55,844 nucleotides of DNA from a virus (Duplodnaviria > Caudoviricetes). A program made the position numbers and the translations under genes. The notes beneath the pieces were generated by a model that was given only the letters and a program-made list of their open reading frames with translations, did no database searches and was not told the DNA's origin. The stretch covers positions 1 through 55,844 of the IMG/VR virus record IMGVR_UViG_3300043446_000624; one strand, written 5' to 3'. Below are positions 4,723 through 54,288 of this stretch, piece by piece (position 1 is the first letter of the stretch; the number at the start of each line of letters is the position of its first letter).

Positions 4723-4857
4723 CATGATCGGCCATGGAATTGCGCGTTTCACCGGGGCGTGAACCACTATCTCGCTCGCTTGGCCCACTCGCTCACTCGC
4801 GTGGCTGGACTCGCGCCTACGCGCGCGGCGACAAATAACTGGTATCAATGGCCAAAT

Positions 4858-4882
4858 AAAAAGGGGACCGAAGTCCCCTTTT
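4858..4882 (-). terminator. intrinsic terminator (cUUCGg loop)
   Basis: Minus strand AAAAGGGGACTTCGGTCCCCTTTTT right after a stop codon. Confidence 0.85.
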
Positions 4883-4883
4883 G

Positions 4884-5054
4884 TCAGTCCAACAGCTCCA
4901 AGAGCTTGTTGTACTCAGTGGTCATTTGCTCATCGCTCCACGTATCGACTATGCTGTAGTCGGGACGCATTCCAAACACGTCTTTATGCAGATCGCTGTA
5001 GCTTGCCCACATTTTTTCCATCGGGCTCATATCTTCCCAAGCTTTGAATTTCAT
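4884..5054 (-). CDS. small hypothetical early protein (56 aa)
   Basis: Below ORF-track cutoff: MKFKAWEDMSPMEKMWASYSDLHKDVFGMRPD...LLELLD; TAGGAG RBS; terminator follows. Confidence 0.8.
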   Translation of the reverse strand: MKFKAWEDMSPMEKMWASYSDLHKDVFGMRPDYSIVDTWSDEQMTTEYNKLLELLD

Positions 5055-5093
5055 GGTGTTCTCCTAGATGGGGGGCCAAAGCCCCCCGGTTAA

Positions 5094-5555
5094 TCAATCA
5101 CACTGGATCGCGTACTTGGGAGTCGTCACTGTTTCAGTGCCGATCACAATTTTGCGACACGTTGGACTATCGTCCTTCACGTATGCACTCAGCAACACCC
5201 TGTAACCGTCCACGATGTACGTGAAGTCACGGTTCAGGCACGATGCGTATTCTTTTTGCTCATCAAGAGTGCCGATTTCTTCGAGCAACCATAGGACTGA
5301 TTCGAGTCGCAGGGACTTAAACCCGTCCAGATGGTACAGATTGATGCTAAACACGGGCTCGTCACCACTCATCCACATGTGCAGAGAGTTGCTACGCGAG
5401 TTGGTGTCGACACACATAGACAACGTGCGAAGCAAGCGGCCGATGGCTTTGCGCTGAGTGGTAAGGACTGCCACGCTGTTACGGGCGCGCACTACGCGGT
5501 CTTTGGCCTCACGCAAAGCGTTTGCGTAGAGTTGGGTTGCAATGGACTTTGCCAT
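5094..5555 (-). CDS. hypothetical early protein
   Basis: 153-aa ORF with TAGGAG RBS; GC hairpin 5070-5087 downstream. Confidence 0.8.
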   Translation of the reverse strand: MAKSIATQLYANALREAKDRVVRARNSVAVLTTQRKAIGRLLRTLSMCVDTNSRSNSLHMWMSGDEPVFSINLYHLDGFKSLRLESVLWLLEEIGTLDEQKEYASCLNRDFTYIVDGYRVLLSAYVKDDSPTCRKIVIGTETVTTPKYAIQCD

Positions 5556-5611
5556 TTCATTCTCCTAGATAGACGACACTCTGGCTTTGCGACATGCTCT
5601 GCATCATTGCA

Positions 5612-5629
5612 TCGTCTGATAATGTTATA
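5612..5629 (-). promoter_or_regulatory. phage early promoter motif, copy 2
   Basis: Minus strand TATAACATTATCAGACGA; matches 4705-4722. Confidence 0.6.
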
Positions 5630-5930
5630 TACCAGCCCTGAGAAAAATTCTCGGTTTGGCGCTGACCCACCCTATCCCCACCCCCCAAGATCTCGCTCGG
5701 GTCCCATCGCGGCTCCATACACTAAGCGGAGCACAAACGACGCCCAACTTCTCTATAACTTAGTACGTATAAAATCATCTTTAACTCTGCACTTCGCTGC
5801 AACCCAATATCCATGCGGGTTCCAGATTAATTCCGCTAGTGCGTGCATGCTCGTTTTGGCGGAAATACCCCCTTGCTTTTTCTAAGTCCCCCCCATCGAA
5901 AAAATTTTTTATAAAAATTTTGGACTTATG

Positions 5931-8033: not shown

Positions 8034-10691
8034 ATGGCTACAAACATGGCCCCCGCGTTGTACGCGGCTCCTATGGGACTCGCAACTCTGGACGACGAGT
8101 CTGATCCGGGCATTGAGATCGAGGTCGTAGATCCTGAGTCGATGACCATCGACATTGATGGTGTGACCATCGAGCTGGAACCGAACGGTAAAGAAGCTAG
8201 CGAGGAGTTCGACGCCAACTTGGCCGAGGGCATGGATGAGGCCGAGCTGATGAAGATCGCGGGCGAACTCATCGAGGATGTGGACGCAGACATCGCTAGT
8301 CGCAAGGACTGGACCGAAGCGTACGTCAAGGGGCTGGAAGTTCTGGGGATGAAGTACGAAGAACGTACTGAACCTTGGACTGGCGCGTGCGGCGTGTACT
8401 CCACCATCCTGACGGAAGCCGCGATCCGGTTCCAGTCAGAGTCCATCATGGAGACGTTCCCCGCAGCGGGCCCCGTGAAGACTGAGATCATCGGCGCAAT
8501 CGACAAGCTGAAAGAGCAAGCGGCCAAGCGCGTTCAGGATGATATGAACTATCGCCTGACTGAAGAGATGCCGGAGTACAGAGCCGAGCATGAGCGCATG
8601 CTGTACAACCTAGGCTTGGCTGGCAGTGCATTTAAGAAGGTGTACTTCGATCCGGGCAAGGGCCGTCAGGTTGCCATGTTCATCCCAGCCGAAGAGATCA
8701 TCATCCCTTACGGCGCGTCGGGGGTTAACTCGGCGGAGCGTGTGACGCAGGTCATGCGCAAGACGAAGAACGAGATTAAGCGCCTTCAGGTTGCAGGGTT
8801 CTATTGTGATGTGGACCTAGGCGAGCCGACACAGCAGAGCACGGACGTCGAGAAGAAAAAGGCGGACGAGCAAGGCTACAGCATCACTGATGATGACCGC
8901 TATCAGATCTATGAAGTGCACGTCACGATGGAGATGCCGGGTGACGAGGACGAGGATGGGATCGCCCGTCCGTACGTCGTGACCATCGACAAGGGCACCA
9001 CTAAGGTCTTGTCCATCTACCGCAACTGGGACGAGGACGACACTCTATATGAGAAGCGTCAGCACTTCGTACAGTATGACTACATCCGTGGCTTTGGCGC
9101 TTATGGTCTGGGTCTGATCCACATCATCGGCGGCTACGCGCGTGCGGGAACCATGCTGATCCGTCAGCTGGTTGATGCGGGTACGCTGTCCAACCTGCCC
9201 GGGGGATTGAAAGCACGCGGCTTGCGTGTGAAGGGTGACGACACTCCGATCGCTCCCGGAGAGTTCCGTGACGTGGACATCCCGTCCGGCTCTATTAAAG
9301 ACAACATCATGGCGCTCCCGTACAAGGAGCCGAGTCAGGTGTTGGCAGGTCTGCTGGATAAGATCACGGAAGAAGGCCGTCGTCTGGGCTCCATCGCTGA
9401 TATGAACGTCAGCGACATGAGCGCCCAAGCGCCGGTGGGTACGACGCTGGCTCTCTTGGAGCGTCAGTTGAAGACGATGGGCGCTGTTCAGGCGCGCGTG
9501 CACGCGGCGATGAAAGAGGAGTTCAAGCTCCTGAAGAACATTATCCGTGACCTGACCCCGGCTGAGTACGACTATGTGCCCGAGGGCGCAGACCCTGTGG
9601 CTAAGCAAGCTGACTACGACATCGTCGAGGTGATCCCGGTCAGCGACCCCAACAGCAGCACGATGGCTCAGCGGATCATGCAGTATCAAGCTGTGATCCA
9701 GTTGGCTAGCCAAGCTCCGCAGATTTATGATTTGCCGTACTTGCATCGTCAGATGATCGAGGTGCTTGGTGTTCGCAACGCGGAAAAGCTTGTCCCGATG
9801 AAGGATGACATGACGCCGCGCGATCCGATCAGTGAGAACATGGCGTTCCTGAATGGCCAGCCGACCAAGGCGTTCATCTATCAGGATCACGATGCGCACA
9901 TCGCTGCTCACACGGCAATGATGCAAGACCCGCTTCTCATGGCGCAGATGGGCCAGAACCCGATGGCTCAGCAGATGCAGGCAGCTATCATGGCTCACAT
10001 TGCTGAACACTTGGCGTTCGCGTACCGCGCGAAGATCGAGAAACAGATCGGCGTTGCGCTCCCGGCACCGGACGAGCAGATGCCCGAGGACGTTGAGGTC
10101 AACCTCTCTCGCATGGTGGCTGAGGCTTCTCAGCAAGTGCTGGCGATGTCCAAGGGACAGGCGGCACAACAGCAGGCTCAGCAGCAGATGCAGGATCCGT
10201 TGCTCCAGTTGCAGATACAAGAGCTGAAGATCAAGGAGCAGGAAGCAGCTACCAAGGCGCAGAAAGTCGAGAACGACAAGATGCTCAAGGAAGCCGAGCT
10301 GGTGCTCAAGGCGGAAGAGATTCATGCCAAGATTGGCATGGATGACCCGGCGATGATCCAGCAGCGTCACGAGATCGAGATGCAGGCGTTGATTGCTCAG
10401 CAACAGCGCGAGATGCAAGCCCATCAACAAGAGATGATGATGAAGCAACAGCAAGCTCAGCAGGCTATGGCGCAGCAACAAGGCGCAGCAGCCGGACAAG
10501 CTGACGCAGCCAAGATGCAGCAAGCGATGCAAGCTCAGCAGCACGCGCAGAAGATGGCACACGGCGGACAGGTCCACGCGCAGAAACTACACCACGCGCA
10601 TGAGGCGCACAAGCAGAACTTGGAGCATCAGAAACAAATAACGGCTGCAAAACCCAAGAGCCAAGCTAAGCCAAAAAAGGGTAATGAATGA
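8034..10691 (+). CDS. portal protein with long Gln/His-rich C-terminal extension
   Basis: Follows terL; GSAFKKVYFD and LVDAGTLSNLPGG portal-type motifs; coiled-coil tail. Confidence 0.9.
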   Translation: MATNMAPALYAAPMGLATLDDESDPGIEIEVVDPESMTIDIDGVTIELEPNGKEASEEFDANLAEGMDEAELMKIAGELIEDVDADIASRKDWTEAYVKGLEVLGMKYEERTEPWTGACGVYSTILTEAAIRFQSESIMETFPAAGPVKTEIIGAIDKLKEQAAKRVQDDMNYRLTEEMPEYRAEHERMLYNLGLAGSAFKKVYFDPGKGRQVAMFIPAEEIIIPYGASGVNSAERVTQVMRKTKNEIKRLQVAGFYCDVDLGEPTQQSTDVEKKKADEQGYSITDDDRYQIYEVHVTMEMPGDEDEDGIARPYVVTIDKGTTKVLSIYRNWDEDDTLYEKRQHFVQYDYIRGFGAYGLGLIHIIGGYARAGTMLIRQLVDAGTLSNLPGGLKARGLRVKGDDTPIAPGEFRDVDIPSGSIKDNIMALPYKEPSQVLAGLLDKITEEGRRLGSIADMNVSDMSAQAPVGTTLALLERQLKTMGAVQARVHAAMKEEFKLLKNIIRDLTPAEYDYVPEGADPVAKQADYDIVEVIPVSDPNSSTMAQRIMQYQAVIQLASQAPQIYDLPYLHRQMIEVLGVRNAEKLVPMKDDMTPRDPISENMAFLNGQPTKAFIYQDHDAHIAAHTAMMQDPLLMAQMGQNPMAQQMQAAIMAHIAEHLAFAYRAKIEKQIGVALPAPDEQMPEDVEVNLSRMVAEASQQVLAMSKGQAAQQQAQQQMQDPLLQLQIQELKIKEQEAATKAQKVENDKMLKEAELVLKAEEIHAKIGMDDPAMIQQRHEIEMQALIAQQQREMQAHQQEMMMKQQQAQQAMAQQQGAAAGQADAAKMQQAMQAQQHAQKMAHGGQVHAQKLHHAHEAHKQNLEHQKQITAAKPKSQAKPKKGNE

Positions 10692-51790: not shown

Positions 51791-52210
51791 TTAAACCTCA
51801 ACTGAAAGATTACTAGATGCGCGGGGCTTGTACACGGTGATCGCGTATTCCCGCATGACATTCACACCGGGGGGCAAACCTTCACCAGCCCTGTCGGTCA
51901 TGAATTGCTTGAAGTTGGTCTGATGGATTCGACGTTCAAGAAGATCAATGCTTCCCTCGGTCTCGACAAACTTCTTGAAGTTGTCCCAATCAGAACAAGT
52001 GTACCGGTCCTTGACTTGACGCGATACAGTACCGTGAGCAGTCTTGAGACCACTCGTGTTCGTTGTGTTGCAGATGTCTAAAAGTGCGGCTTCAATTTTC
52101 TCCAAGTCTTCCTTCAACTCTCTGTCGGCTGAATCAAAATCGGCCTTGAGTGTCTCACGTTTCCGACGAATTGTTAAATAGGTTTCCACTAACTGATCAG
52201 CATTGTTCAT
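51791..52210 (-). CDS. conserved coiled-coil replication-module protein
   Basis: YLTIRRKRE, KTAHGT, DWDNF, LLERRI, LPPGV motifs; AGGAG RBS. Confidence 0.7.
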   Translation of the reverse strand: MNNADQLVETYLTIRRKRETLKADFDSADRELKEDLEKIEAALLDICNTTNTSGLKTAHGTVSRQVKDRYTCSDWDNFKKFVETEGSIDLLERRIHQTNFKQFMTDRAGEGLPPGVNVMREYAITVYKPRASSNLSVEV

Positions 52211-53771
52211 TGCTTTCTCCTTCGATTTCCTGACGATACAGGTCCACCAACTGTTCGTGCATATCGACCTTGTTTTGCAACATGCGATACATACGGCGCT
52301 CCACCTCGGACCCTTGGAGGTGGATTACAGTCATACTGTTCTTCTGTCCCACGCGGTCAATCCGCGCAATACACTGTAAGTAAGTCTCTACAGACATGAC
52401 GGGTGACCAGAACACCACCGTGTCAGCGGCAGTCAATGTCACACCATGCGATGCGGCTTGCGGTTGAATGAGTAATACCTTTGGGTCATCCTGCGTTTGG
52501 AAACGATTAAAAATTGCCGCACGTTCATTGGCTGATACGCTTCCTGCAATGATCTCGCTGGAGATGTTGCTCTTGTTCAGGAAGTTCTTGATCAAGCTAA
52601 GCGTGTGGGTGTACGGCACAAAGACGATGACTTTGTGGGAAGACTCTTCCAACACTTCGTGCAACACGTTCAACCGTGGCGATACATCGAACTCGACCAC
52701 ATTGCCTCCGTCGGTGTACACCGCCCCACCCGATAGCTGGAGCAGTTTGGTCAGCGCGGCGGCGGCATTGACGGTACTAATGGTTTCCCCTACTGCCATG
52801 ATCTGCATTTGCTTGACCAATTCCTTGTAGTAGCCCGTTGCCTGTGCAGTCAGCGGCACTTCGCGTGACTGATACGTCACCTCTGGTAAGTCAAGACACT
52901 GCGACTTCTCGTAGCGGATTGCGGGTTGCAATGCGTTGAACACTAGCGACTTGGCGTAAGGTTTGGGAACCCAACGAAAACGGGAAACCTGCGTCATGAC
53001 AGTATCTTTCCACGCTGTCTTGTACTTGGGCACACGTGACGGATTTATCAGCCGAGCAAGCCCGAACGCATCTTCAGGTGACTGCGACGCGGGTGTACCC
53101 GTCATCATCCACAGATAGGTGCTCGGTTGAATGATGCTTGCTAGAGTCTTCCAGCGCACAGTACTCGTGTTCTTGTATGCGTTGGCTTCGTCAACGATGA
53201 TCAGATCAAATCCAGCGTTGGCAATTGCTTCGCGCTCAGACGATACACCGTCATAGTTGATGATGACAAACTGATACTCGCCTTCGATGACTTTGCGGCG
53301 TTTGCTACCATGAGCAATACCGCAGGTGCGGTGCATTGCTGTTTTGAACAGATCGCCTTGCCATGCTGACTTCATGATTGACAACGGACAGATCACCAAC
53401 ACTCGCTTAATCTTGCCTTCACGCATCAGATAGTCTGCGGCCCAGATAGCGGCAGATGTCTTGCCTGTACCAGCTTCGTTAAAACAGAACGCACGTTTGT
53501 GCAGGGTTAGGAAACGTGATGTGTCGCGCTGATGCTCGAACGGCTGGAACATTCCAGGCCAGTTGTAATGCTTCTCGATGGGTGACGGAAGTTTGCTGTC
53601 TTCGAGCAGTACGGTGAGCGATTGCATTTCATCAACGCCCCAGTACACCATCATTTCCGAGTGCGAGCCTTGCGCTCCAAGCACCTCGCTCTTGTCGATG
53701 GACGCCTTGATTGTCTGCGCCACATCATGTGAGCAATGGAATTGCACTGCAATGTCTTCAACTATATTCAT
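52197..53771 (-). CDS. SNF2-family (SF2) DNA helicase
   Basis: EAGTGKT, IIVDEA, MTGTP and QCIARIDRVGQ motifs; GAGGT RBS before ATG 53771. Confidence 0.92.
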   Translation of the reverse strand: MNIVEDIAVQFHCSHDVAQTIKASIDKSEVLGAQGSHSEMMVYWGVDEMQSLTVLLEDSKLPSPIEKHYNWPGMFQPFEHQRDTSRFLTLHKRAFCFNEAGTGKTSAAIWAADYLMREGKIKRVLVICPLSIMKSAWQGDLFKTAMHRTCGIAHGSKRRKVIEGEYQFVIINYDGVSSEREAIANAGFDLIIVDEANAYKNTSTVRWKTLASIIQPSTYLWMMTGTPASQSPEDAFGLARLINPSRVPKYKTAWKDTVMTQVSRFRWVPKPYAKSLVFNALQPAIRYEKSQCLDLPEVTYQSREVPLTAQATGYYKELVKQMQIMAVGETISTVNAAAALTKLLQLSGGAVYTDGGNVVEFDVSPRLNVLHEVLEESSHKVIVFVPYTHTLSLIKNFLNKSNISSEIIAGSVSANERAAIFNRFQTQDDPKVLLIQPQAASHGVTLTAADTVVFWSPVMSVETYLQCIARIDRVGQKNSMTVIHLQGSEVERRMYRMLQNKVDMHEQLVDLYRQEIEGESNEQC

Positions 53772-53799
53772 ACTACCTCTTGACTGTTTGTTTGTTTGT

Positions 53800-53943
53800 C
53801 CCCGTCTTTCCGGGGTGTCCGTCAGTCCTGCAAAGAACAAAGTCTAGGAGAAAGCAACCCTGCCAACTGACTGATGCGGTTTAGGGAACCAGATAAAAAC
53901 CCTGTTTGACGCCTAGCGTCTGGCCCACTCACACCTTACTGCC
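53800..53943 (-). ncRNA. C4-like structured antisense RNA in helicase leader
   Basis: Own promoter; several stems; terminal GACACCCCGGAAAGACGGGG hairpin; anti-SD loop TTGCTTTCTCCTAG. Confidence 0.6.
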
Positions 53944-53949
53944 AACACA

Positions 53950-53977
53950 ATGATAGCGACGTTTTCGCTTTTGTCAA
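53950..53977 (-). promoter_or_regulatory. sigma70 promoter
   Basis: TTGACA-16 nt-TATCAT on minus strand. Confidence 0.75.
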
Positions 53978-54288
53978 GTTTTCTTTCGTTCTTTTTTGCT
54001 GACTTCGGATACGAGATTACCCTTAGAGTCGCGTCGGAACGAACGATTCTTTGCCGCGCTTTCAATGCGCAGTCCGTCCTTGTTGGAGCCGCCTTTGTCG
54101 AGCGCACGAACGTGTGCTACGTCCTTGCCTTCGCGTCGATCAGCCTTGCCATCATGGTCTGCATCTCTGCCAGTCTTATCGATAGCACGACGACCGCGCT
54201 GACGCTCCATGCGACGCTCATGCTCACCACGAGCAAGCTGTTGCTGATATTCTTTTTTATACGGTCTGGGTTTGTTGACGTAGGGCAT
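53974..54288 (-). CDS. HNH endonuclease-like protein
   Basis: KDVAHVRALDKGGSN...KNRS. Confidence 0.7.
   Translation of the reverse strand: MPYVNKPRPYKKEYQQQLARGEHERRMERQRGRRAIDKTGRDADHDGKADRREGKDVAHVRALDKGGSNKDGLRIESAAKNRSFRRDSKGNLVSEVSKKERKKT

Follow-up and report, generated by a model that had tools for sequence, protein, structure and literature searches.

The C4 antisense RNA of phages P1 and P7 is released from its leader by RNase P processing and, since the work of Citron and Schuster in 1990, is said to carry two loops, a' and b'. In phage T4, RegA represses about 30 early and middle mRNAs, and RegB cuts the GGAG found in early Shine-Dalgarno (SD) sequences. The RNAs RsaE and RoxS have anti-SD-like pyrimidine hairpin loops with which the SDs of several mRNAs are targeted. 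As described in PMC12197685, exposed loop bases of C4 pair with the mRNA around the ribosome binding site (RBS) and block translation, and this RNA is catalogued as RF01695 (PMC2864571). An extended consensus, GGAGRAYARAA, is given for the RegB sites in PMC3014915, and the cuckoo RNAs are described in PMC4615179 as having hairpin loops whose anti-SD-like pyrimidine motifs target several mRNAs at their SDs.

The RNA studied here lies in a window of 55,844 nucleotides, which is the whole stretch of DNA that was analysed and comes from a virus of the Caudoviricetes (IMG/VR record IMGVR_UViG_3300043446_000624). It is conserved in more than 100 uncultured water phages and belongs to a previously uncatalogued family, without an Rfam entry. 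This folded RNA is most likely an RNA switch on early protein synthesis, and sequence comparison makes it reasonably probable that it acts as an antisense RNA repressing a group of early genes of its own phage.

It shares with C4 its phage origin, its place at the head of an operon and loop bases complementary to an RBS. C4 has only 77 nt, whereas the members of this family have 125-160 nt and a pseudoknot; C4 acts on one adjacent site, whereas the candidate targets here are many and dispersed; and C4 belongs to an immunity operon with icd/ant, whereas the present RNA is found in the replication module of apparently virulent phages. The likeness to RegA and RegB of T4 is found in the joint shut-off of early genes at translation-initiation regions, which is here a prediction, and in the fact that regA is also located in a replication gene cluster. 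RegA and RegB are, however, proteins, whereas here the agent would be an RNA loop, and the motif varies from phage to phage and co-varies with this loop. The C/U-rich anti-SD loop resembles those of the cuckoo/CcsR RNAs (CCUCCUCCC). Cuckoo/CcsR and RsaE/RoxS are nonetheless cellular sRNAs built of simple hairpins and terminators, in contrast to a pseudoknotted phage RNA without terminator, and their seeds do not reach past the SD core into phage-private flanks as the seed described here does.

Promoter and fold of the RNA

The features of the locus, in the order in which the minus strand is read, are the following (the P4 strands are given together).

53974-54288, minus strand: gene of a 104-aa basic protein (phrog_4590), which usually adjoins the RNA on its 5' side
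53950-53977, minus strand: sigma-70-like promoter TTGACA-16-TATCAT (-35 at 53977-53972, -10 at 53955-53950; 11/12 consensus positions)
53799-53947, minus strand: structured RNA, matched full-length by covariance model R1 (69.1 bits, E ~6e-17)
53941-53944, minus strand: P1, 5' strand TGGC, pairing with GCCA
53925-53940, minus strand: loop L1, AGTAAGGTGTGAGTGG, with the near-invariant core GU.AG......AGUG
53935-53930, minus strand: pseudoknot, 5' strand GGTGTG, within L1
53921-53924, minus strand: P1, 3' strand GCCA, pairing with TGGC
53883-53920, minus strand: variable P2 region, here with the two hairpins GACGC-TAG-GCGTC and AGGG...CCCT
53920-53908, minus strand: GACGC/GCGTC hairpin, read from the sequence
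53903-53883, minus strand: AGGG/CCCT hairpin, read from the sequence
53873-53878, minus strand: pseudoknot, 3' strand CGCATC, partner of GGTGTG at 53935-53930
53865-53871, minus strand: P4, 5' strand GTCAGTT, partner of GACTGAC at 53827-53821
53821-53827, minus strand: P4, 3' strand GACTGAC, located 3' of CTTTGC (P5) and of the conserved ..AGG junction
53863-53858 with 53835-53830, minus strand: P5 stem GCAGGG/CTTTGC, read from the sequence
53843-53857, minus strand: P5 seed loop, TTGCTTTCTCCTAGA, with the anti-SD core CUCC; the seed sequence of the window includes CUCCUAGA
53800-53815, minus strand: P6 hairpin CCCCG-GAAAGA-CGGGG, without U tract
52197-53771, minus strand: SNF2-family helicase gene, with its ATG 27 nt past the end of the RNA

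The original prediction was made from the sequence alone, and its elements, namely the promoter, the stems, the loop, the 12-nt match and the two 10-nt matches to RBSs, are all present in their places on the minus strand. The -35 hexamer of the promoter shares bases with the stop codon of the gene upstream. The pairing of GGTGTG with CGCATC is upheld, but not as a plain stem, since the prediction had missed the hairpin P1 (TGGC/GCCA), which encloses GGTGTG and therefore makes this pairing a pseudoknot. Within L1, the columns G9, T10, A12, G13, A19, G20, T21 and G22 are invariant in alignment A1. The P2 region forms a single hairpin in most relatives, as opposed to the two of the window. The final hairpin was confirmed to lack a U tract, and a promoter and terminator scan found no terminator-like site in 53600-54100. 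The same P6 hairpin occurs in L001, L014 and L015, and with another gene context in L162, L140 and L170. In minimum free energy (MFE), the 174-nt leader does not surpass shuffled sequence (z = 0.30), a score that has no bearing on the covariation evidence.

Conservation and covariation in the family

The family has members on 119 viral contigs, with 84 distinct sequences and a length of about 125-160 nt. The RNA occurs as a single copy each in the window and in 50 loci whose helicase was matched from residue 1, that is, in 51 of the 81 sources searched, and the model matched full-length in all 79 hits that were collected by sequence pattern. Alignment A1 holds 33 sequences; alignment A3 holds the 79 pattern-derived sequences, 51 of them distinct, and in its model the pseudoknot was left out.

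It is clear from these alignments that the RNA is a real structured RNA, as had been predicted. In A1, 87.7% of the cells are paired, compared with 70.7% in shuffles (0/500 reach the observed value) and 31-47% with slid partners, and changes on both sides were found in 20 of 23 pairs; in A3, the paired cells amount to 91.5% versus 75.0%. Strong covariation is seen in four helices, the pseudoknot included. P1 is 86-91% paired, with changes on both sides at 5-6 of its 6 pairs, and P2 in its single-hairpin form covaries at 5/5 pairs. P4 is paired in 100% of the cells in A1 and in 97.7% in A3, and all six of its pairs covary. For the pseudoknot these values are 94% and 100%, with changes on both sides that include C-G to U-A and G-C to A-U, and the G-U pairs at its positions indicate that the fold is specific to the RNA's own strand.

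A promoter comparable to that of the window precedes 29 of the 83 distinct members. In most of the other 54, which have no promoter consensus in the scan, the stop codon upstream lies no more than about 10 nt from the start of the RNA. A T run follows the 3' end of the model in 12/84 members. Four sequencing runs that contain part of the stretch are labelled RNA-Seq and are probably DNA.

Searches with Rfam 15 gave no family for the window as a whole at the gathering threshold, and at E up to 10 only a chance snoRNA match on the opposite strand in 53600-54100; six other members matched no family at E up to 5. Among cultured phages, blastn with the locus returned no match and blastn with a consensus-like member returned only chance matches (E = 6). 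With the model at E <= 1 nothing was found in the whole records of Acinetobacter phage HHU4, Rhizobium phage RHph_TM3_14A, Pseudomonas phage Rollin and Xanthomonas phage Xp15, and with the filters off, four cultured-phage loci and 9 of 30 helicase loci lacking the RNA all scored below 8 bits. Both the RNA pattern and the helicase are absent from 185,579 prokaryote genomes, which gives no sign of a prophage. The 16S 3' domain and the HDV-like, pistol, ZTP and other folds were dropped as possible relatives, since to our knowledge either the topology or the sequence does not fit. No description of this RNA family was found in the literature. In PMC10690425, 8,495 candidate structured RNAs are reported from intergenic regions of IMG/VR, the same kind of data as used here, and they may include all or part of the present motif; in the main text of that paper, the terms helicase and Shine-Dalgarno have 0 occurrences each, and no proposal of such a function was found.

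Genomic neighbourhood

The genes found next to the RNA encode a PD-(D/E)XK nuclease, a small basic protein, the SNF2 helicase and a DUF927 primase-helicase. The RNA lies upstream of the helicase in all 50 helicase-derived loci, and among the 67 A3 loci with a helicase, it is located 14-55 nt before the start of this gene in most and up to 412 nt in the rest. Ten of the 79 pattern-derived loci carry the RNA in regions of non-coding RNA and tRNA, with neither a helicase nor another replication gene of the window's type nearby, and in some phages the RNA adjoins a tRNA-Met gene.

Pairing of the seed loop with ribosome binding sites

Each RNA has a single pyrimidine seed, located in P5. CTCC is found in 64 of 78 distinct P5 loops and GGAG in 3; at least three of the four CUCC bases are unpaired in the MFE fold of the arm in only 39 of 69 members. 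For the window, the candidate targets are the following.

52210-52221, minus strand: RBS of gene 51791-52210, 12/12 complementary to the loop
5560-5569, minus strand: RBS of gene 5094-5555, TCTAGGAGAA, 10/10 complementary
5059-5068, minus strand: RBS of gene 4884-5054, TCTAGGAGAA, 10/10 complementary

The 12-mer complement reaches the first base of the start codon, ATG, of gene 51791-52210, whose product gives weak DUF7307 and Gam-Gp157-like matches below the Pfam cut-off, and the RNAduplex energy between loop and RBS is -21.8 kcal/mol. Both TCTAGGAGAA sites stand four bases upstream of their ATGs, gene 5094-5555 being the first minus-strand ORF past the strand switch, and the site of gene 4884-5054 is matched over 13 nt by the loop of the sister contig L001. 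The significance of the matches within the window alone is weak. With up to one mismatch, the loop 12-mer has two matches in the window where 0.44 are expected, the loop itself counting as one of the two, and 5/100 shuffles reach two; the loop 10-mer has four against 1.8 expected, and 11/100 shuffles reach four. At sites of at least 10 nt, the window's own loop has three matches, while foreign loops have none (15 loops) or one (3 loops). It is the evidence from related phages that makes the stems and the matches more than chance.

This evidence comes mainly from a test in which the own 16-nt loop core was compared with 18 foreign cores at all SD-bearing starts of 19 whole genomes, none of which was dropped. 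The longest match was 9.58 for own versus 8.43 for foreign cores (p = 0.0001-0.0002), the number of sites of at least 8 nt was 4.95 versus 2.28 (permutation p < 1e-4), and that of sites of at least 9 nt was 2.32 versus 0.78 (p = 0.0001). The controls were null, namely the parallel complement (p = 0.45), the same sense (p = 0.50) and the reversed loop (p = 0.91). In a blind test, complementarity to the own loop was seen in 23 of 95 top RBS 7-mers, the figure for foreign loops being 0.37 per genome (p < 5e-5). The matches of own loops are found on the strand of the RNA in 77 of 94 cases, compared with 53% of all sites (p = 3.6e-9), and they cluster in genes 3-27 kb upstream on that strand, with another site 1.7 kb downstream. 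The RBS motifs are private to each phage (AACAGGGAG, TGGAGATCA and AAAGGAGAAGT are examples), and the targets have good SD cores at normal spacing. The antisense character of the loop is thus borne out both by the matches in the window and by the 19 genomes, in which own loops beat foreign loops genome-wide at p ~1e-4; the absence of such covariation between loop and RBS across related phages had been named as the outcome that would speak against the original prediction.

Orthologs of gene 5094-5555 were found at only 10 loci, and three of these are on records that hold the RNA, with one for the reading, one against it and one with an unclear start. The ortholog in G009, a distant phage, has a different RBS, TTGGAGATCA, which pairs 10/10 with the loop of G009 itself, UGAUCUCCAA, ranking first of 79 loops; in the G007 ortholog, pairing with the own loop reaches only 6 nt, at rank 31/79.

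Other tests gave no such signal or at most a borderline one. In 28 representatives, the loop was compared with the RBS that follows the helicase gene, with p = 0.51 (energy), 0.12 and 0.08, and in a GGAG-anchored 6x6 genome test with whole loops the own loop had no advantage; the first two tests are kept as counter-evidence, and the redesign consisted of fixed 16-nt cores and the 19 genomes. With 35 representatives, the RBS after the helicase is borderline (p = 0.051 and 0.02), and p-values near 0.01-0.05 are to be discounted given that several tests were run. Against the helicase's own RBS, also in 35 representatives, the match was 1.71 for own versus 1.99 for foreign loops (p = 0.85; second match-length p = 0.80) and the energy was -10.18 versus -10.90 (p = 0.95). 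Judged by eye, alternative pairings in which the loop engages P6 or the helicase SD were inconsistent across clades. In about 7 of the 19 genomes, the own loop has 0-1 matches of at least 8 nt, or matches scattered on the wrong strand (G003, G008, G014, G017, G018 with the CTCC core, and G020).

Proposed mode of action

The RNA, at the head of the replication module, would either be transcribed independently from a promoter of its own or form the final portion of the early transcript. In the fold, P1 comes first, with its conserved loop engaged in a pseudoknot with a segment past the variable P2, followed by the P4/P5 arm and the GC-rich P6. The P5 arm displays the pyrimidine-rich, anti-SD-like loop as a seed, and the co-variation suggests that this seed pairs with the SD and spacer of early genes that carry the phage-private SD extension; in some clades, the gene after the helicase would also be matched. 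The pairing would be expected to block 30S binding, and an RNA made in either of these ways would shut off early protein synthesis. The presumed role of the scaffold is to give the seed stability and hold it out for pairing, or else to bind a protein; an antisense role does not account for its strongly conserved unpaired bases.

The silencing of replication genes in general, which had also been predicted, finds no support, given that only the gene after the helicase matches, and this only in some clades, while the RBS of the helicase gives no signal (p = 0.85-0.95). Of the traits of anti-SD sRNAs, the RNA has the exposed C/U-rich loop complementary to the SD (CTCC in 64/78) and, computationally, several targets whose complementarity was kept in evolution (the 19 genomes and the G009 ortholog). 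An own promoter together with an intrinsic terminator is not general, since the promoter is found in 29/83 members, the window has no terminator and the T run is present in 12/84.

Alternative explanations

The position of the RNA, mostly 14-55 nt before the helicase start and upstream of this gene in all 50 helicase-derived loci, would suit a cis-acting leader or intercistronic operator, either a riboswitch or a protein site, that controls translation or stability of the helicase and replication mRNA with the loop on the helicase RBS. The missing terminator and the RNA start within about 10 nt of the upstream stop in most of the 54/83 members without promoter consensus agree with this, and the many conserved unpaired bases, together with the GNRA-type loops of P6, suggest a tertiary fold or a binding site. 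Such a leader is nonetheless unlikely: the RNA is not always directly upstream of the gene, as 10/79 pattern-derived loci carry it without a helicase nearby, the loop has no own-phage signal against the helicase's own RBS (p = 0.85, 0.80 and, for the energy, 0.95), several helicase RBSs have no SD at all, and the genome-wide co-variation with upstream RBSs is left unexplained. The same pseudoknotted fold with highly conserved unpaired bases, at an intercistronic site and, in other phages, in arrays of tRNA and ncRNA where processing takes place, could also be read as a processing or structural element, such as a new self-cleaving ribozyme, an RNase entry site or a stability site, that parts the early and the replication cistrons and in which the loop is incidental. 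We consider this improbable, given that such an element does not predict loops that track private RBS motifs and that no likeness to any Rfam ribozyme family was found.

The co-variation data would also fit if the pairing were positive, with the RNA acting as a stand-in anti-SD or as a tether, perhaps bound to the 30S subunit, by which mRNAs with the private motif are translated preferentially or shielded from nucleases. It is conceivable, if doubtful, that the phage thereby makes a second anti-SD, anchored through its scaffold to the small ribosomal subunit or to a phage factor, whose loop reads the private SD extension found only on the early mRNAs of that phage, giving an orthogonal initiation channel. 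Some loops indeed resemble the 3' tail of 16S rRNA in its familiar form, as CCUCCUUUCU does in L059, the conservation of the scaffold goes well past the needs of a seed holder, the RNA adjoins a tRNA-Met gene in some phages, and a strong host-type promoter is found in 29/83 members. Positive pairing is nevertheless a poor candidate, because in most members transcription reaches the RNA only after its targets or at the 3' end of their operon, which fits shut-off better, because the targets already have good SD cores at normal spacing, and because no ribosome-binding feature was identified. Far less probable than any of these is membership in the family of immunity RNAs of P1/P7 C4 (or P4 CI) that silence a temperate or carrier-state phage, which was the original proposal. 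An RNA at the head of an operon with a loop antisense to RBSs does recall the way in which C4 works as described in PMC12197685, but neither C4, c4-2 nor any other Rfam model gave a match, for the window even at E up to 10 and for six other members at E up to 5. The two-loop layout of C4, with a' and b' pairing to adjacent sites (a2/b2) at one RBS of the same transcript, was rejected in view of the single P5 seed and of targets at RBSs dispersed over kilobases. The immunity-operon setting was likewise rejected: the neighbours are replication genes, no antirepressor was found in the window, no integrase or resolvase was found there either (no PF00589 or PF00239 match, which agrees with the predicted lack of a visible integrase), and no prophage copies were found, neither the RNA pattern nor the helicase having a relative in the 185,579 prokaryote genomes. 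Immunity or a carrier state is therefore not upheld.

Significance

Repression of a set of early genes by an antisense RNA remains the preferred reading. Antisense control of an RBS is textbook knowledge for a few temperate phages, with one RNA and one target. The present case differs in being a large non-Rfam family on 119 viral contigs that was not found in cultured phages or prokaryote genomes, in its elaborate pseudoknotted fold, and in a seed that tracks the phage-private RBS motif across a whole block of early genes. This tracking would explain the SD extensions that the early genes of one phage have in common and that the host 16S rRNA cannot read. Should the repression model prove true, the RNA would be the counterpart of the T4 proteins RegA and RegB and a general device for early-to-middle timing in virulent phages, and the family would offer a ready-made set of orthogonal seed/RBS pairs.

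The RNA locus and its matches inside the window

The RNA lies 5' of an SNF2-family helicase gene, at 53799-53947 on the minus strand. The original prediction had claimed a promoter, a set of stems, a loop and exact complements of this loop at the ribosome-binding sites (RBSs) of three phage genes, and all of these are found in the window sequence.

Features of the locus and exact loop complements (window coordinates)
53977-53972 and 53955-50, minus: sigma-70-like promoter, TTGACA, 16 nt, TATCAT (11/12 in the promoter scan)
From the promoter to a CA-rich linker, RBS AGAGG and helicase ATG (53771), minus: leader of ~150 nt
53857-53843, minus: P5 loop, TTGCTTTCTCCTAGA
52210-52221, minus: loop complement AGGAGAAAGCAA, ending on the first start-codon base (A) of gene 51791-52210
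5560-5569, minus: loop complement TCTAGGAGAA, 5' of gene 5094-5555
5059-5068, minus: loop complement TCTAGGAGAA, 5' of gene 4884-5054

In 53600-54100 the scan gave no terminator-like site. Within the window, the 12-mer match count was equalled in 5/100 shuffles and the 10-mer count in 11/100, and folding is predicted with an unremarkable energy (z = 0.30). Because the matches are only mildly unusual and the folding energy is ordinary, the window alone is undecisive.

The record is linear and estimated to be 88% complete (IMG/VR virus record). Its minus-strand early/replication block is cut by the contig ends (1-5555 and 47710-55844), so that the record looks circularly permuted or otherwise arbitrarily opened. 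Circular permutation is probable, and the distance from the RNA back upstream to the early genes 5094-5555 and 4884-5054, which share its strand, would then be ~7.4 kb. Two other phage records, G012 and G016, look opened in the same way, with target RBSs at both ends.

GC-rich hairpins stand on both sides of the small gene 4884-5054 (5069-5093 and 4857-4883, minus): GGGGGGCTTTGGCCCCCC directly 5' of its TCTAGGAGAA RBS, and GGGGACTTCGGTCCCC followed by TTTTTAT 3' of its stop, which is terminator-like yet unlisted under the stricter rule of the scan. The strand-divergence region between early (minus) and structural (plus) genes, 5570-5930, is rich in G-runs (GGGGGGTGGGGATAGGGTGGG, GGGGGGG). No sigma-70 consensus promoter was found there by the scan, which suggests that the early promoter is degenerate or other than the plain host type.

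A conserved pseudoknotted fold

Inspection of the 250 nt 5' of the helicase at the 50 loci where the helicase matches from residue 1 revealed a common architecture. Plain sequence identity to the window is low in these regions, and blastn matches only the sister contig L001 over the whole length.

Elements of the common architecture
P1: hairpin, TGGC/GCCA in the window, which the original prediction did not have
L1: P1 loop, nearly invariant GU.AG-NNNNNN-AGUG
PK: pseudoknot of the six variable L1 bases with a segment after the variable P2 region and a conserved UAACC; GGUGUG/CGCAUC in the window
P4: helix of 7 bp
P5: inner stem with a pyrimidine-rich loop
Junction: conserved ..ACAGG
P6: GC-rich hairpin, often with a GNRA-type loop; CCCCG-GAAAGA-CGGGG in the window

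When pairs of this structure were counted in 33 members aligned with MAFFT, 87.7% of the cells were paired, versus 70.7% in column shuffles (0/500 reach 87.7%) and 31-47% with slid partners, and 20 of the 23 pairs changed on both sides. In P4, all cells were paired and 6/6 pairs covaried; the pseudoknot exchanges were C-G to U-A, G-C to A-U and G-C to A-U. Across the 79 loci of a sequence-pattern scan, the pseudoknot, absent from the covariance model and so not imposed by it, was paired in 100% of the cells, with two pairs changed on both sides. G-U pairs at fixed pseudoknot positions assign the fold to the helicase-sense strand. Taken together, the alignments show that the RNA has a conserved, strand-specific, pseudoknotted fold. 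CUCC occurs in 64 and UCC in 69 of the 78 distinct P5 loops, and the reverse-complement control GGAG in only three; the exceptional loops carry CCUUUC or CACCUUA. The P5 loop is thus an anti-Shine-Dalgarno display.

Family size, distribution and genomic setting

A search for helicase relatives in viral contigs confirmed 103 stretches, and 80 of them were kept. The covariance model, built from the 33-member alignment with the pseudoknot left out, found a single copy per sequence in the window and at the 50 loci with a helicase matching from residue 1. It found none at 30 loci (0/30; nine searched again with filters off) whose helicases are 56-60% identical and match only from residue 28-72 (L050-L058, L060-L080), their similarity to the window helicase not extending to its first 27-71 residues. 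Among helicase-linked members of the family, the N-terminal segment and the RNA therefore co-occur. The pattern scan, which was independent, gave 79 viral loci, all of them full-length model matches (79/79). The pattern was absent from 185,579 prokaryote genomes, in which no close helicase relatives were found either; cultured relatives (helicase 35-40% identical) gave no model match genome-wide and have no space for the RNA 5' of the helicase. The collection comprises 119 contigs, namely 116 from the helicase-relative and pattern sets (13 common to both), the window and two found later, with 84 distinct RNA sequences in the two alignments. By these searches, the RNA belongs to a large, new family.

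The usual setting of the RNA, seen at 67 of the 79 pattern-derived loci, is between a small basic protein and the helicase; two loci stop short of the helicase with the upstream genes kept, and ten have another setting. In three of the latter (L162, L140, L170) the RNA follows an unrelated ORF and precedes 260-700 nt of non-coding DNA with more repeated structured units; in the other seven (L145, L176, L138, L111, L185, L120, L132) it is 3' of a small ORF. A same-strand tRNA-Met gene lies ~300-450 nt 3' of the RNA, before terminase-like genes, in five of the six loci scanned from this group of seven.

tRNA-Met (CAT) genes (locus coordinates)
L145: 1034-1108, minus
L176: 2414-2488, plus
L138: 3808-3882, minus
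L132: 1059-1133, plus
L111: 3129-3203, minus

Between the RNA and tRNA-Met there is an extended -10 box, TGTTAGAAT, and a long-range stem, GTTGGCGCACAG...CTGTGCCAAC. A second conserved structured unit, in one to several copies, stands just 3' of the RNA in L162 (oriented 510-760), L140, L170, L138 and L176. Its layout is CACGC-ATGGGGATTG-[variable hairpin]-CAGTCCCCA-GCCGTGTTGG, its inner stem changes on both sides (GGGGA/TCCCC vs GGTGA/TCACC), and it matched no Rfam family. L145 also carries, far from the studied RNA, an Rfam int-alpA RNA (9577-9644, minus; 37.1 bits vs a gathering score of 35.8).

The constant 5' neighbour is a very basic protein of 104 aa (phrog_4590; window 53974-54288, minus), without a Pfam match and 47-93% identical family-wide; an H-N-N-like motif is seen by eye (DVAHVRALDKGGSNKDGL...AAKN), and the protein is absent at the ten loci of other setting. 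A sigma-70-type promoter precedes 29 of 83 distinct members, and in most members without one the RNA starts ~10 nt or less from the stop codon of the upstream gene. Transcription of the RNA would usually be either separate or as the last part of the operon upstream.

Loops match the ribosome-binding sites of their own phage

Comparison of loops with the RBS of the gene after the helicase gave no own-phage signal for 28 representatives, neither in energy (own -15.82 vs foreign -15.85, p = 0.51) nor in the longest Watson-Crick run (6.36 vs 6.09, p = 0.12), and a borderline one for 35 (p = 0.051 for run length, 0.02 for energy). The RBS of the helicase itself gave none for these 35 (p = 0.85-0.95). 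With whole loops, a GGAG-anchored 6x6 comparison of genomes showed no own-loop advantage, and phage G001 was matched better by the window loop than by its own. At one site in G001 (38329, minus; clade B), the RBS TCTAGGAGAAAGCAATG is a perfect 15-nt complement of the window loop and matches its own loop, which has an extra UC, only over 9+4 nt with a 2-nt bulge; this looks like an uncompensated seed insertion.

Homologs of gene 5094-5555 occur at ten loci, three of them on RNA-carrying records (G009, G007, G008). In G009, which is 100% complete and whose helicase and early protein are 67% and 34% identical to those of the window, the homolog RBS TTGGAGATCAcATG forms a 10-nt perfect duplex with its own loop ..CUGAUCUCCAAC.., having only GGAGA in common with the window pair TCTAGGAGAA / UUCUCCUAGA. 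The homolog RBSs of G009 and G007 were ranked against 79 loops, the homolog start of G008 being ambiguous. The own loop ranks first for G009 (runners-up 8 and 7 nt), and 31 of 79 for G007, where only 6 nt are paired; for the two early RBSs of the window, the own loop is second only to that of L001 (11 and 13 nt). Covariation of loop and target, proposed as a check in the original prediction, is therefore seen in G009 as an orthologous target with a compensatory change.

The comparison was extended over 19 genomes (the window, G001-G005, G007-G009 and G011-G020), picked on size and differing loops before results, with none dropped. Sites (94-232 per genome) were ATG or GTG starts of ORFs no shorter than 45 aa, preceded at a distance of 4-17 nt by an SD-like tetramer; each loop was reduced to a fixed 16-nt core, the 19 cores were compared and the RNA locus was excluded. 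The longest match was 9.58 nt for own loops vs 8.43 for foreign ones (permutation p 0.0001-0.0002). Sites per genome numbered 4.95 vs 2.28 at 8 nt or more (p below 1e-4), 2.32 vs 0.78 at 9 nt or more (p 0.0001) and 1.16 vs 0.25 at 10 nt or more. In the window, the own loop has three sites of at least 10 nt, and the other 18 loops have none (15 loops) or one (3 loops). The own-phage effect was absent from all three same-composition controls (p = 0.45 for the parallel complement, 0.50 for same sense and 0.91 for reversed). In a blind version, which took the five commonest 7-mers per genome in the -20..-1 region of starts on the RNA's strand, the own loop was complementary to 23/95, vs a foreign-loop figure of 0.37 per genome (p below 5e-5).

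The RNA's strand carries 77 of the 94 own-loop matches of at least 8 nt (p = 3.6e-9 against its 53% share of all sites) and 71% of the foreign-loop ones. On gene maps the matches cluster on the upstream side of the RNA, at ~3-27 kb. In the window, G001 and G002 the gene after the helicase is matched as well, and past that gene there are no matches, save runs that lie upstream again if the record is circularly permuted (window, G012, G016). The RBS motifs are private to each phage.

Private RBS motifs and loops of the same phage
G011: (A)AACAGGGAG(GT), 11 sites; own loop CCUCCCUGUUU
G009: (C)TGGAGATCA, 7 sites; own loop CUGAUCUCCAA
G016: AAAGGAGAAGT-type, 11 sites; own loop ACUUCUCCUUUG
G019: CCAAGGAGAAAGCA (14 nt) and 7 more; own loop UGCUUUCUCCUUGG
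G005: GAAAGGAGGAA; own loop UUCCUCCUUUC
G018: CGAAAGG, commonest RBS 7-mer, 7 sites; CCUUUCG, other pyrimidine run of the own loop

Some phages depart from this pattern: G003, G008 and G017 have one match of at least 8 nt each (on the opposite strand in G003), G014 (67% complete, only 5.5 kb upstream of the RNA) has none, G018 has none with the CTCC core, and in G020, a phage of the tRNA context, matches are scattered and mostly on the wrong strand. Over the 19 genomes, the comparisons show an own-phage-specific antiparallel complementarity between the P5 display and the SD-plus-flank of a same-strand gene block.

Nature of the RNA and proposed mechanism

The RNA had been read as C4-like and possibly serving immunity. 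Rfam 15, which covers C4, c4-2 and every known riboswitch and ribozyme, gave no match for the whole window at gathering thresholds, for the locus at E up to 10 or for six diverse family members at E up to 5; by the single membership test available, this is not a C4-family RNA, although loop-to-RBS antisense pairing is common to both (PMC12197685). An immunity role is disfavored by the replication-type neighbours in the window (PD-(D/E)XK nuclease, the basic protein, helicase, DUF927 primase-helicase), by the lack of a tyrosine or serine recombinase in the window and by the absence of the RNA pattern and close helicases from prokaryote genomes. A further neighbour has weak DUF7307/Gam-Gp157-like matches below the Pfam cut-off. 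The position 5' of the helicase would fit a helicase leader, and the occurrence of the RNA away from the helicase argues against a pure one. What stands of the original prediction is the antisense RBS regulator.

For such a regulator, pairing of the P5 loop with the RBSs of the matched gene block is likely. The duplex would cover the SD and spacer (~-16 to -3) and should therefore exclude the 30S subunit. The RNA arises 3' of its targets, or from a promoter of its own at the head of the replication module, and for this reason its build-up would end early-gene translation; repression as the outcome of pairing is moderately probable, somewhat less so than the pairing itself.

Closest in seed logic are bacterial sRNAs with C/U-rich loops such as RsaE and RoxS. 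The cuckoo sRNAs, described with CCUCCUCCC loops (PMC4615179), are also of this type. In T4, RegA is described as repressing ~30 mRNAs from a gene in the replication cluster, and RegB as cutting GGAG in early SDs with an extended site consensus (PMC3014915); the role proposed for the phage RNA is the same as that of RegA and related to that of RegB. Phage sRNAs are presented in a 2025 review as acting on single genes (PMC12197685), and the PAK_P3 sRNAs are described without such RBS targets (PMC4933390). The main text of a study of IMG/VR candidate structured RNAs (PMC10690425) mentions neither helicase nor Shine-Dalgarno, and its supplementary lists may hold the motif. In the literature searched, neither this RNA family nor any phage RNA with a match to a private RBS motif was found described. 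The original reading is partly right, in that the RNA would be an antisense RBS regulator, a known kind of control exerted by a new family; what is new here is an RNA family with a seed matched to a phage-private RBS motif.
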